64,000 nt of DNA, from NCBI GenBank assembly GCA_964106645.2, contig OZ067038.1. One strand, written 5' to 3'. The translations under genes were made by a program, and so were the position numbers. A model generated the notes under the pieces. That model saw only the letters and a program-made list of their open reading frames with translations. It searched no databases and was not told the DNA's origin. Positions 5,300 to 36,855 of the stretch are shown piece by piece (the first letter of the stretch is position 1; the number at the start of each line of letters is the position of its first letter). The stretch comes from Podarcis pityusensis (Eukaryota).

Positions 5300-31472
<26,173 letters not shown>

Positions 31473-31482
<10 letters not shown>

Positions 31483-31527
31483 GGTGGATTGATGGAGCAA
31501 GATCCCACGTGGCTCGCGGATAAGATT
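31473..31527 (-). CDS. PAX6: PAX6 exon 4 (55 nt; coding part 31473-31482, ATG CAG AAC A)
   Basis: Minus strand CATAG|AATCTT...CCACCATGCAGAACA|GTAAGT; CCACCATG Kozak-like context. Confidence 0.96.
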
Positions 31528-31931
31528 CTATGAGTAATAAAACAGGCTTTAATCAGGGGAGGGAAGCTCGCGGGCAGGTAGTTGCGCTGCACTGAGTGCC
31601 CAGGTCTCCAAGGCCTCGTTGCTTTCTGCTGGCCTCCCAAATGATGTCAAATATTATATATATATATTTTTATATATCATGCGAAAACCCTCCCAGCCCC
31701 AGAGCCTTTGTAACAACAAACCTGGAAACGTTTCAACCTAGCAAGTCTAGTTCTTTAAAAAAATAAACAAATAAACAGAAACCAGCCGTGGCCTTCTCCT
31801 CGGCAAACTGGCTGTGGCAAGTGAGGGCTCGTGATGCACCAAGGAAATTGGGTCGGAGTGCGAGAAGTTTTCTAGTGATGGGGGACGGGGGGGGACGGGG
31901 ACGGGGAAAGTAGAAGGTGCTTCCAACTTGC

Positions 31932-32008
31932 CTGATTTATGAGCGGACTCTCCTCTCTGGCAATTTAACGACTCACACATCTGCGTAGCGCTTGTTAAAG
32001 TCTTCCCG
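31932..32008 (-). other. PAX6: PAX6 non-coding exon 3 (77 nt) with GC donor
   Basis: CCTAG|CGGGAAGACTTTAAC...CAGATGTGTGAG...AAATCAG|GCAAGT; same length and motifs as mammalian exon 3. Confidence 0.9.
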
Positions 32009-32158
32009 CTAGGATGAGGGGGAAAAGTATATTAAAAGTATATTAAGCACTTTTAAATTTGCGTTCCCTAACCTCCTCCCCGCCACCCACCCCAGTCATA
32101 GCCGCCTCGCATTTGGAGGTGGGGGTGGGAAGAGAAAGGCAATTCAAAAGATTCAGCA

Positions 32159-32202
<44 letters not shown>
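32159..32202. repeat. Compound (AC)m(AG)n microsatellite in intron 2
   Basis: Seen directly. Confidence 0.95.
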
Positions 32203-32209
<7 letters not shown>

Positions 32210-34489
32210 AAATATGCCCAAGTTTTTTCCAGCACGCCTTACTGGAGCGCCTCCTGCCCATAGGAAAGAGTTCTGATCTGTGACACCTTTTGTGTCCGTA
32301 TTTACAAACAGGACCTCGACTTTGGTTGGGCTTGGTTTGGCTGAAGGGAGCCGGCGCGACGTCCTCGCGCTGCACTTTGGGGCCAAAGGACCCTTTCTCT
32401 GAAAAGAGGTGGCCAGCAGAGTTTGTTGGCACTTTCTCTCCCTGGGTCCCCCTACCCCCGCTGCAACCTCTCCAGGTTGCTTAGGGGTAAATCCTGCTCT
32501 CTTGCATGGGGCGTGGGTGGATGTGCTGGGGCACTTCTTTCTCTTTTTAAACCACACATGTTTGGGAGCTACTTCACTCTGGTGATTCTTTTCGGGGCAC
32601 TACTAACCATCCTGAAAAAACAAAACCCGAAGAGGGAGAGAGAAGTGGGGAGGTGGTGGTGGGGGAGAGAGAGAAATCCACTTATTGTGATTAACTTCTT
32701 TTTTGGTCTTTAGATCTTCCCCTTTTTCACTGTACTGTGACACACGCTGTCTACCTCGCCTCAGTGCTTTAAAAAGTAAGGCCAGGAGGGGGTGAGGGCT
32801 GGGAATACAAAGCCTCCAGAAGGCGAACAATGGCCTCCATTTTACTCCCCTACCCAAACGCCGAGCGCAAGACCCCAGCCAGGCAGCCTCCTCCGGAACG
32901 GGCCGCGGCGCAGCCTCCCAACTCCGCGTTCCCAACAACCCTCCAACTTACAAAGGAGCGGGTGGGAGGGGGGGCACACAGCGGCCTTCCTCCTCCCTTC
33001 TGTAGGGCCCGCCTTGACCCACGCAGCCTGGCCAGCCCCAAGCCCTGCCTTGGGTTGTTTTTGTTTTTAAACCTGCCTTTTGAGGAATAAGACGAGGAAT
33101 AATGCAACAACAAAAGAAGTTCTGCAGTTCTTGATGCTCTGTGTTGCATGTATTTATTTATTGGGTCCCAGCGCTTTCTTTTTAGGTTCCCAGCCTAGCA
33201 GGGGGAAAATAGAAAAGTAATTTCTCGTTATAAATATCTGGAGGTAATTATGTTACTGGTGTGAGTTGTTAGGGGTTGTAAAAAGATACAACAGCGCAGT
33301 GGGGTGCTCAATTGGGGTGAGACAATTACAATAAAGAACCTATTCAAGAGGTTTTGCTTTAAAAAAAAAAGAGGGGGGAGAAGACAGAGAGAGAGAGAGA
33401 GGAGGTAAAATAATGAAATAGTGGCAGCCTTCATTTTATTCGCCCCCAAAACCTCCCCCCTTTATTTTTATTTTTTTTGGGAAGCTTTAAAAAAATCTCT
33501 TCTCTTTCCAGGCTATAATGAATATTAATTTTATTCTTTCTACATAGAAAAAGAGGCATCTTCTTCCGGGTCCAAAACGACTCCGGTATGATTTTTTAAA
33601 GTGCTTTTTTCCCCAAAGCCATCTACGTCCCATTAAAAGGGGGGAAAGAAAATCAACACGGAACAAGGACTCCTCTCGCAGCGTGAATGAGGCGCGCGGT
33701 GGTAAATATTTACTCCGCTTTGGAGAGGCACCTGATTAGCAGCCGAGCCTAGCGCCCTGGACCCTTCTCCGGAAAAAGCCGGTGCCTCCAGTCGCCCAGA
33801 GTTTCCAGAAGGCGCCCCTTTAACACACCAAACACGTCTGCCGGGACACACGCTTGCACGCAGGACAACCGCTCCAAGACGGAAAGACGCCGAAGCGTGA
33901 GAAGCAACGAGAGAGAGAGCCTTTTTCGCCCAGGCGCGGAGGACTGTTATTGTGAACACTTCCCAGTCTCTGCTATACCAACTGGCGAAATGTATTTTAA
34001 GGAACTCACTTTGGCACTTATTTGGGGTGTTAACAAACAAAGACGGCTAGCTGGTTTCAGGCACCAACAAACAAACCGAGGCGTTATTCTGATGAATCCG
34101 TGACAGCAAAATTGGGGTAGGGGGGAGTGAAGAGATAAAAGAGAGAGAGAGAAAGATTTGGGCTTTTGGGCTATTTTAATTAGAAGGTGGACTGAGCTCT
34201 ACAACCACCAGCAAAACCGACCCTTCTTCCCTTCCCCCACCCGGAAGCGCAATAATGGTGGAGTTTCTCTCTTTGCCAGAAAGTAGCTCCTTTTTACTGA
34301 ATTTTTAAAATGAAATTATTCACAAAGAGATGCAGGTAGGCAGAGAGCAGCCTCGATCAAATATCCCGGTGAGATTACAAACCCTACGCGAAACGCAACG
34401 TCTCCCTGGTCCCGGCTAGGCCTAATCTGCAAATTCCTATTTAAATCTCCAAATCTGGATCTAATCTGATCGTCTTTGAGATTTGATCC

Positions 34490-34700
34490 TCCCCTCCGCT
34501 GCAAACATAATTAGCTATTAAGATGACAAACGTTTACAATCCCGGGCCGTATAAGCAAAAGATAAACGCTAATCCATTGGCGTAGAGACGTTTGCTAAAG
34601 GTCACCGGCTATAAAAATTTATTGCCAAAGACCACAATTATTATTTTAGGCCTATAAAGACGCTCAGTCTCCAGCCATAATGAATGGCTTCACTTTCTGG
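34490..34700. promoter_or_regulatory. Candidate conserved element in intron 2
   Basis: TAATTAG, TGACA, TAATCC, GATAA and AATTATTA cluster. Confidence 0.4.
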
Positions 34701-36346
34701 AAGGAACTGCTCGGTGCTCTCGACTGGGCCTGAAAAGTTTATTTGTAAGCCTGGTCGCATCAGGAGTTTCTCCCCTCGTATTTTAAACCCCTGATTTGAA
34801 GACGCCAGTGGTTTATTATTCCCTCCCCCTAGTTAGATTAGTTTAAATAGAGTTAAAGAAAACAGACAGAAGTTTATTCTTGCACTCCTGAAGCGATCAC
34901 TTGTGCAGCCCTTGCCTATGCAAGTTCACTCAGAAATGCTTTTTGTTTCAGTGACGTTTATTCTCACATTAAAGTGTGCGTAAAATCTCAGCCTCAATGT
35001 ATGGCGGTAGAGGTGGAAACTCTGAAGAAGCGAGGAGGTGGGGAGTGAACTTTTTTTGGGGTTGCCCTGCATTTTACGTGAGTCTGGGCGAAACTTCAAA
35101 ACATCCACCCAACAAGGAAATGAGATTTCGAAAAACCAAAACCAAACCAAAACAACAGCAAGAAAAAACCCATTTGCTACTTGAAAAGGAAGCAGACAAC
35201 ATTCTCTAGCCTAGAAACTTGTGGAGAATGGGGTGGGGGGAGCTATTGATCGCAGATTCTTTGGAGCGCAAAACTCAGGAGACTTAAACGATCTCGGAGA
35301 TTTGAGTGAAGCGCTGGGGGGGGGGGTGGCAAAGAGCGCAGAGAGAGAAATGTTGTTTTTTTGTGGCTGTTTTTGTTTAAACAGTTTGTACTTCGAGCCA
35401 GGTAGTGATCAAGTTAGAAAGTTCTGCTCATTCCCAGTCTCGTCGTGGACAAGTTTGGGGAGATCTCGCGGCTGCTTGATTGAGAGTGACAGTCCTTCAG
35501 CTCCGCTCAGACCTTCCCGGATACAACTACTGAGACCTGACTTGGCCTAGAATGTGACTCTGTGTGTCGTCGTGTCCCCCCCTCCCGCCGGCCCGCGTGC
35601 CTCTCTCTTCCCCATTTCCTTAAGGCCGGTTAGATTGAGGGGGGAAAGAGATATATAGACATAAATAAAGGGAGAAGCGAGAGTTGCCTAAACGAAAGTC
35701 CCTCATCAACACACCCGCATACGCACACACAGCTTCAGCTTGACGGAGATACAAAGCAACCAAGGAAAAGAAGCGGGGAATAAAGACACTGAGCTTGGAT
35801 GGACCCAGCTTCCCAAGAAAGCAAGGGGCCAAGCAACGCCGTGTGGTCCATAACGCCTCCTTCACAACAACCGCAACAACAAATGCCCCTCATAGGAACC
35901 AGGTGTGATGCATTCTCGTGTGTGCGCGAGCGCTCAGATGATCCCTACAGCTTTGGCCGTCCCTATCGCACTGTGCCAAACGGAGCAAGCCTTTCGTGGG
36001 GCTCTGTCTAGCAGAAAGGCCGGGCGAGTCTGCTGCTGTTGCTATCCAGAGAGAGAAAGAGAGAGATAGATGCTTTCTCAGGAAACAGGGGCGGGGGTCG
36101 GTCCGTGAAGGAGGAAGAGGAGGAAAAAGAAGAGGAGGAGAAAGAAGGCTGGAGCGAAAAGGACAAAGTTTGGAAGCCTTTGAGACTGGCATCTCGCCTA
36201 AGATCCTTTCCCGGAATGTAAGAAATGGTGTGTATGTGAGCGAAACGGGGGGGGGGGGGGGAGAGAGAGAGAAGGGGGGGGAGAGGGAGAGACCTGTCTA
36301 AATATTAAAATGAACTGAAGCGAGGAGAAGAAACGAGCAGACTCAC

Positions 36347-36492
36347 CTTTCTGAGGCATCCTGTCTTGTTGTCAAAGCTCCTGTCAATAGTTTTAAAAAG
36401 CGCCCCTGATTTGAAATGATGGTGCCTTAAAAAGGGTTGCCAGTAAAAGAGTTTTTCTCCACTGAAGCTGCTGGTTGTGTGATCTTGAGTTC
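36347..36492 (-). other. PAX6: PAX6 non-coding exon 2 (146 nt)
   Basis: TCTCCTTCCCAG|GAACTC...GTGGAGAAAAACTC...GGATGCCTCAGAAAG|GTGAGT. Confidence 0.92.
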
Positions 36493-36614
36493 CTGGGAAG
36501 GAGACAGAGATTGACAATAAAATGGGCTGTCACTGACTGGAGAGGGAGAAAGAAAGAGGATGTGAGCGAAGTAGGGGGGAGAGAGGGAGGGAAAGAGGGA
36601 GAGACAGAGCACAC

Positions 36615-36855
36615 CTATGCTGATTGGTGATGGTTCAAGTGTATTAATGTATGTGTGCGCCTGGTCTCTGCCTCGCCTCCCCTGCTCCCCACTGGCCCAT
36701 TAGCAAAGCCTGACCTCTGTCATCATCTTCCAGCAAAACACTTCCTCCCTGCGCCTGAACCAGAGCGGGAAATGAGGCTGAGCCAGGGCTCGCTTTTCAA
36801 ACCCACTAATCACTCCACGCATGCAAATGCTCCGCTCGCTCCCACACAAAATATT
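36615..36855 (-). other. PAX6: PAX6 non-coding exon 1 (P1 transcript; start approximate; possible internal donor AGAG|GTCAGG at 36715)
   Basis: AATATTTTGTGTGGG...GGAGTGATTAGTGGGTTTGAAAAG...CATCACCAATCAGCATAG|GTGTGC closely resembles mammalian exon 1. Confidence 0.9.

Follow-up and report, generated by a model that had tools for sequence, protein, structure and literature searches.

Pax6 is an eye-development gene, and Filatova et al. are said to have described in 2021 a uORF (upstream open reading frame) that spans exons 2 and 3 of the human PAX6 5′UTR. In the supplements of PMC9943669, the human uORF is placed at chr11:31806912-31810840 and consists of two exons. Skipping of exon 3 converts it into an overlapping ORF, which PMC7617937 and PMC12822670 propose as the cause of some cases of aniridia. 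A second literature deals with a longer Pax6 protein of fish. PMC6480603 describes exon 3 of bream as a cassette: if it is included, translation starts in exon 4, and if it is excluded, in exon 2. Section 6 of Ravi 2013 (PMC3554528) regards this N-terminal extension as teleost-specific and treats it as acquired in fish. We did not find an explicit link between the fish extension and the tetrapod uORF in the published literature, but Filatova 2021 may discuss such a link. The components are already published, and the lizard leader is in itself ordinary.

We analyzed the Pax6 leader of Podarcis pityusensis in a stretch of 64,000 nucleotides (contig OZ067038.1), referred to as the window. All features lie on the minus strand:

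36427..36726 (-): further uORF of 25 codons, from the end of exon 1 (donor 36715) into exon 2
36347..36492 (-): Pax6 exon 2, 146 nt, with AG/GT ends; its last 13 nt open the uORF
36357..36359 (-): upstream ATG with A at -3, the orthologue of both the start of the fish extension and the start of the human uORF
31932..32008 (-): exon 3, 77 nt, with a GC donor; carries the uORF stop and a second ATG
31995..31997 (-): uORF stop TAA, 14 nt into exon 3, giving a uORF of 8 codons
31978..31980 (-): exon-3 ATG, 14 nt past the uORF stop, with a weak context (C at -3, T at +4)
31473..31527 (-): exon 4, 55 nt; 45 nt of leader are followed by 10 nt that begin the main ORF
31502..31527 (-): exon 4, conserved 5′ half, equal to 9 fish-frame codons
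31489..31501 (-): 13-nt stretch at the place of four ray-finned fish codons (12 nt), as deduced from the peptide alignment
31480..31482 (-): main Pax6 ATG with A at -3
25383..25513 (-): exon 5, 131 nt, containing the TGA (25404-25402) of the +1 overlapping frame

The reading that we favor, with a probability of roughly 0.68, is that exons 2, 3 and 4 form a leader whose 8-codon uORF likely sets Pax6 output via resumed scanning and which differs from its fish counterpart by one base of phase. The geometry is that of the human gene: the uORF starts 13 nt before the GT donor of exon 2 and stops 14 nt into a 77-nt exon 3 (c.-128 to c.-52 in human). The lizard frame is likely the orthologue of the human PAX6 uORF, and its effect on Pax6 output is predicted from this relationship. 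The exon-4 leader measures 45 nt in the lizard and 51 nt before the ATG in human, so that 13+51 is also 3n+1, and in both species skipping of exon 3 produces an out-of-frame ORF that overlaps the coding sequence. Mammals are far less similar to the fish peptide in exon 4 than the lizard is.

Ribosomes initiating at the exon-2 ATG would terminate in exon 3 and resume scanning toward the main ATG. The weak exon-3 ATG would be bypassed on the way, and initiation would occur anew at the main ATG, 108 nt downstream of the uORF stop. In ATF4-type leaders, a short uORF is followed by an overlapping out-of-frame uORF. The lizard leader resembles this arrangement, as its short uORF is also followed by an ATG that opens a frame overlapping the main ORF; this second frame encodes 71 amino acids and reads exon 4 in the frame of the fish extension. 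Unlike in ATF4-type leaders, the gap between stop and second ATG is just 14 nt and the ATG is weak, and we therefore predict constitutive bypass to be likelier than control by stress.

The connection to fish emerges if exon 2 is joined directly to exon 4. The peptide encoded by the end of lizard exon 2 and by exon 4 is identical to the ray-finned fish extension at up to 11 of 13 residues, and when the 45 nt were shuffled 20,000 times, no shuffle matched the score against either of two fish peptides, so that the likeness to the fish Pax6 N-terminus noticed in the initial annotation holds up as homology. Within the conserved half of exon 4, 7 of 9 residues agree with the sturgeon or mormyrid peptide, and the flank in exon 2 agrees with sturgeon at 11 of 16. 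When all six reading frames across the window are compared, exon 4 also scores highest, with a chance 8-mer at 28042 just two points lower. The exon-2 ATG and the exon-4 acceptor are the same as those behind the fish extension (sturgeon P0091 and P0121, mormyrid P0035), and by these comparisons lizard exons 2 and 4 are orthologous to the exons encoding it. The label “teleost-type” originally given to the extension is too narrow, since sturgeons and paddlefish carry it, i.e. it was present before teleosts. Among 422 stored proteins that extend to where the paired domain begins, all 109 models with a full extension are from ray-finned fish (108 of them by name).

In ray-finned fish, the exon 2–4 join is in frame, adds 19 residues upon skipping of exon 3 and is widely annotated, whereas in the lizard it is one base off. 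The 13 nt of exon 2 and 45 nt of exon 4 amount to 58 nt before the main ATG (3n+1), and the join with exon 5 yields a frame +1 ORF of 59 amino acids, terminated by TGA 25404-25402 just as had been claimed. If exon 3 were skipped in the lizard, this overlapping frame would be expected to repress Pax6 as in human aniridia variants. The net one-base difference can be placed in the interval flanked by the W-D and the S-T-M codons, where the lizard has 13 nt and sturgeon four codons. A tandem acceptor at exon 4 that would restore the frame is absent, because the nearest AG upstream of the exon-4 acceptor is 19 nt distant, with none in between.

The exon 3–4 joint is spanned by six reads of a close relative, the shorter arm reaching as many as 57 letters, and none of them has a listed indel in exon 4. 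The P. lilfordi model P0075, identical to exon 2 at 48 of 48 residues, maps exactly onto exons 2 and 4 with 15 codons before the Met, and frog, axolotl and bird models also imply a 45-nt exon-4 leader. An assembly slip as source of the 45 nt is unlikely; a real exon-4 leader of 44 nt, and with it an extended lizard Pax6, is largely refuted by these reads and by the models of equal length and appears extremely improbable, with no point found in its favor. Judging from the models, the one-base offset is not confined to the lizard: the 3n+1 phase is common to lizard, frog, axolotl and birds (45 nt) and to mammals (51 nt, with a 6-nt insertion).

Exon 3, which the initial annotation had omitted, is present in the available reads. 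Five reads join the 3′ end of exon 2 to exon 3 and six reads from five starts join exon 3 to exon 4 (31527/31932, CT..GC), giving the order 2-3-4. These belong to 43 mapped reads from one single-cell run of the close relative (X16), a tiny depth; X16 was the only informative run of four, as X18 provided nine reads and no joint and the contigs of X1 and X5 lack exon 4. Since the reads carry exon 3 and the frame stops after 8 codons, the overlapping 2–4 ORF proposed earlier is unsupported as a normal product. No exon 2–4 junction occurred among the junctions listed, each with at least three reads, for a mapped stretch of this one run that does not contain exon 2 and with eight loose-end rows outside the comparison. 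Minor skipping of exon 3 may be compatible with this read depth.

Skipping of exon 3 could, on the other hand, be deliberate in some tetrapod cells, with the overlapping ORF serving as a dosage brake and the 3n+1 phase under selection. We consider this unlikely. The shared phase of lizard, frog, axolotl, birds and mammals, the GC donor of exon 3 and the lacertid database model P0075, which joins exon 2 directly to exon 4, all fit such a switch. Against it stand the missing 2–4 junction in the stretch just described, the Xenopus laevis models, in which the phase is broken, and the human gene, for which PMC7617937 reports exon-3 skipping as disease-causing. Equally doubtful is the broader proposal that exon 3 has long acted as a cassette switch and that one base reversed what skipping means, producing a longer Pax6 in ray-finned fish and a regulated translational brake in normal tetrapod eye and brain development. 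If it were true, the human aniridia 5′UTR variants would represent the same switch stuck on.

Returning to the constitutive uORF leader, we asked why a fish-like peptide can still be read in it. The suggestion that the peptide itself is under constraint is not supported by comparison across tetrapods. In the axolotl model, the W cannot be encoded in the fish frame; in Xenopus laevis models, the frame has shifted again and the core is found in the third frame (6/14 vs 0–2); and compared with the lizard only 4–5 of 9 fish-frame exon-4 residues are kept in birds and 4 of 9 in beaver, so the peptide is not retained in one frame. As a control, the 11 codons directly 5′ of the upstream ATG, read in another frame, are about as legible: lizard and sturgeon agree at 7 of 11, as compared to 6–7 of 9 in exon 4. 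A single sturgeon model (P0202) underlies this control, and the human counterpart of the stretch falls within another uORF in a different frame. Minimal changes favored the third position of the fish frame by 20 to 12 (p=0.11; three tetrapod protein models from non-independent lineages, with nucleotides deduced), a weak hint of peptide constraint. That the fish-like peptide can still be read likely reflects conservation of the leader at the nucleotide level and not retention of the peptide. Of the alternative idea that the underlying RNA is constrained, the part concerning nucleotide-level conservation fits best, but a stable fold is not indicated: exon 4 alone is no more stable than its shuffles (z = 0.24; 110 of 200 shuffles fold equally well). 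Metagenome contigs were rejected as a source of vertebrate nucleotide orthologues, as all nine matches were chance hits lacking blastn similarity to the window.

One route by which the fish-frame peptide could be translated and constrained in amniotes leads through the exon-3 ATG, via the 71-aa ORF or via isoforms returning to the main frame farther downstream. Models from bird, bat, rabbit and beaver begin with MCE as at the lizard exon-3 ATG, lizard and birds agree at 10–11 of 16 exon-3 residues, and crow-type models take exon 4 in the fish frame and then rejoin the main frame; the third-position bias points the same way. However, the bias is not significant, the ATG is in weak context, few exon-4 residues are kept in birds and beaver, and none of the 37 PAX6 matches in the Filatova 2023 supplements is an overlapping ORF, nor is either of the two PAX6 entries in the Ribo-seq table of PMC10032668. 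We regard this route as rather improbable.

The direction of the one-base change bears on whether the lizard peptide is a fossil, as the initial annotation assumed. An ancestral bony fish or jawed vertebrate may have made an extended Pax6 by skipping exon 3, until the gain of one base on the lobe-finned/tetrapod stem ended the extension; this requires no present function of the peptide. The identity of 7 of 9 lizard exon-4 residues with the sturgeon or mormyrid peptide, the presence of the extension outside teleosts in sturgeon and paddlefish and the cassette behavior of exon 3 in a cyprinid (PMC6480603) are in agreement with it. Yet none of the models from cartilaginous fish (45), lungfish (2) and coelacanth (1) carries the extension, and section 6 of Ravi 2013 (PMC3554528) views it as acquired in fish. 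Shark models starting at the main Met would hide the phase of exon 4 if inclusion of exon 3 is constitutive. For gar, bowfin and bichir, no model with an informative N-terminus was found (P0283 and P0074 have unrelated starts). According to Feiner 2014, the second teleost copy bearing the extension dates to the teleost duplication, and an argument for greater age based on this copy therefore falls. Given the 0/45 count, a gain in ray-finned fish is at least as likely as an ancestral state, and we consider it slightly likelier than a loss toward tetrapods; a true fossil is possible, at odds clearly below even. Thus, of the claimed indel in an ancestral extension, the net one-base difference could be located, while its ancestral polarity is unproven.

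The comparison ties together two separate literatures, as the longer, fish-only Pax6 and the uORF of human aniridia share one start ATG. Whether skipping of exon 3 results in a longer protein or in a predicted suppression of Pax6 is determined by one base of exon 4, which makes this leader a clean case of interconversion between a uORF and an N-terminal extension in a dosage-sensitive gene. We predict that human exon-3 splice variants would give misleading results when modeled in zebrafish. Two minor observations concern the same leader: a CACGTG palindrome is located at 31511-31506 inside the conserved 5′ half of exon 4, and the start of the 25-codon uORF corresponds to the start of the human Ribo-seq uORF c11norep57, the human uORF being longer.

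Pax6 lies on the minus strand of the window, and the translations of exons 2 and 4 are identical to the Podarcis lilfordi model, which marks the animal as a lacertid lizard. The exon-2 ATG (36359-36357) is 13 nt from the exon-2 donor, and 45 nt of exon 4 precede the main ATG (31482-31480). Joining exons 2, 4 and 5 opens 59 codons in frame +1, one base off the main frame, ending at TGA 25404-25402. These coordinates, the 45-nt length and the out-of-frame run, all part of the initial annotation, were borne out. The length was further upheld by six spanning reads from a close relative (single-cell RNA run X16), without listed indel in exon 4, and by models of other species: the distance from acceptor to main Met is 15 codons in each of the P. 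lilfordi, Pelobates and axolotl models, and bird models show the same exon-4 length, read in the other frame. Because of these reads and equal lengths, an assembly error is very unlikely. No tandem acceptor was found at exon 4.

The direct reading from exon 2 into exon 4 had left out an exon that is included in the X16 reads:

32008-31932, minus strand: exon 3, 77 nt with a GC donor, between exons 2 and 4
31931-31930, minus strand: GC donor of exon 3, non-canonical, confirmed by a CT..GC joint in the X16 reads

The exon 3-4 joint was covered by six reads from five starts, and five loose ends at the exon-3 acceptor continued into the last bases of exon 2. Among the rows listed for the 43 aligned reads, none was a 2-4 joint, at a threshold of 3 reads, with eight loose-end rows beyond the listing and over an aligned stretch without exon 2. 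With exon 3 included, the exon-2 ATG opens an upstream ORF (uORF) of eight codons. A second, weak ATG follows in exon 3; its frame comprises 71 codons and coincides in exon 4 with the fish frame, i.e., that of the ray-finned fish N-terminus starting in exon 2. In the spliced 2-3-4 arrangement, the two ATGs (36359 and 31482) are 135 nt apart (3n), which places the exon-2 ATG in frame with the main ATG, but stops in exon 3 block readthrough. The human counterpart distance, computed from published coordinates, is 141 nt, likewise 3n. Exons 2, 3 and 4 share end phase 1, and a skip to exon 5 therefore keeps either upstream ATG in frame; models with such a skip occur in birds, bat, sturgeon, eel and whitefish.

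Geometry, phase, orthology and exon-3 inclusion in the available reads are established. After a short uORF, scanning can resume. Following this general behavior, ribosomes leaving the 8-codon uORF would resume scanning, mostly bypass the weak exon-3 ATG, 14 nt beyond the uORF stop, and then use the main ATG, 108 nt past that stop. Skipping of exon 3 would remove the stop, and ribosomes initiated in exon 2 would overrun the main ATG out of frame.

For human PAX6, the supplement of Filatova (2023) contains an ATG-initiated uORF spread over two exons (chr11:31806912-31810840), for which pathogenic frameshift and splice variants are given; none of its 37 PAX6 hits is an overlapping uORF. According to a passage in a review (PMC7617937), exon-3 skipping makes the human uORF overlapping, a hypothesized cause of aniridia, and a section of PMC12822670 describes exon-3 exclusion to the same effect. 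The exon-3 boundaries c.-128 to c.-52 in a section of PMC7615962 give a 77-nt exon, as in the lizard, and an exon-4 leader of 51 nt compared with 45 nt, again 3n+1. For fish, the relevant part of Ravi (2013) allows a start in exon 2, terms it teleost-specific and gained early, and assigns the human exon structure to elephant shark. In bream, a passage of PMC6480603 links exon-3 inclusion to a start in exon 4 and exclusion to a start in exon 2.

Of 496 stored proteins, 422 reach the paired-domain start. The full extension is present in 109 of the latter; by name, 108 of these are ray-finned fish proteins (sturgeons and paddlefish included), and one entry has no name. When the lizard frame is set against 30 distinct fish extensions, identity over the first 13 residues ranges from 4 to 11 and is highest in mormyrid, and none of 20,000 shuffles equalled the score. 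The likeness stops past the W-D codons, with 0-1 matches in the six residues that follow. Lizard and sturgeon agree once more, now in the main frame, at the final two codons ahead of the main Met, and by sequence comparison the net extra base therefore falls in 31501-31489. One sturgeon model, which takes exon 2 in another frame, matches the lizard at 11/16 residues, so exon-2 orthology does not depend on four residues alone. In ray-finned fish, the exon-3 skip adds 19 residues in frame, whereas the same skip in the lizard is one base out of frame.

Taken together, the feature is real and correctly measured, and two known things mostly explain it. The modest new point is a start codon common to the fish extension and the human disease uORF, which differ by one base in exon 4; no paper making this link was found in the literature searched.

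None of 45 cartilaginous-fish models has the extension: the main Met is the start in 37, another start is used in 6, and 2 lack the paired start. Lungfish (2/2) and coelacanth (1/1) models also start at the main Met. These starts lean toward a ray-finned gain, although they are not decisive, since the exon-4 phase would go unseen if exon 3 were always included.

The suggested constraint on the peptide is probably absent. The comparisons were built on database protein models with inferred nucleotide changes. The 11 codons upstream of the exon-2 ATG, in a frame other than the one it opens, are about as legible (7/11 identical to one sturgeon model); birds keep 4-5/9 and beaver 4/9 fish-frame residues; in the axolotl model, the W position can hold only G or R; and two Xenopus laevis models carry the core in a third frame. 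Inferred changes in three models favor the third position of the fish frame by 20 to 12 (p=0.11), which points weakly the other way. No unusual RNA fold was found in exon 4. Its conserved core contains a CACGTG palindrome (31511-31506) of E-box type. Compatible with Pelobates and Xenopus models and incompatible with axolotl, bird and mammal models, it might account for the local conservation at the DNA level.

Further starts were noted around Pax6. Three X16 reads from two starts join the end of an intron-4 exon near 26190 (26188-26204, minus) to exon 5 at 25511; an ATG just ahead of this end would be in frame, and comparably short starts occur in models from turtle (P0260) and anole (P0256). 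The P. lilfordi model P0075 begins with an ATG in 47126-46927 (minus) and splices to exon 2, then exon 4, gaining 98 main-frame residues. This model may be an artefact of prediction; inclusion of exon 3 would bring a stop into its frame within that exon. Two Podarcis muralis models, P0233 and P0364, correspond to an alternative exon at 26852-26725 (minus) in frame with exon 5, and in crow-type bird models a related exon returns the exon-3 ATG frame to the main frame. A 25-codon uORF (36726-36427, minus, spliced) begins in the last bases of exon 1. Its start corresponds to that of the human Ribo-seq uORF c11norep57 (65 codons, entry in PMC10032668), but the lizard uORF stops earlier. The Pax6 linker exon has a second, weaker match in the source genome (G000:C13:17743626-17743742, 54% identity), possibly a paired-less Pax10/Pax6.2 gene.
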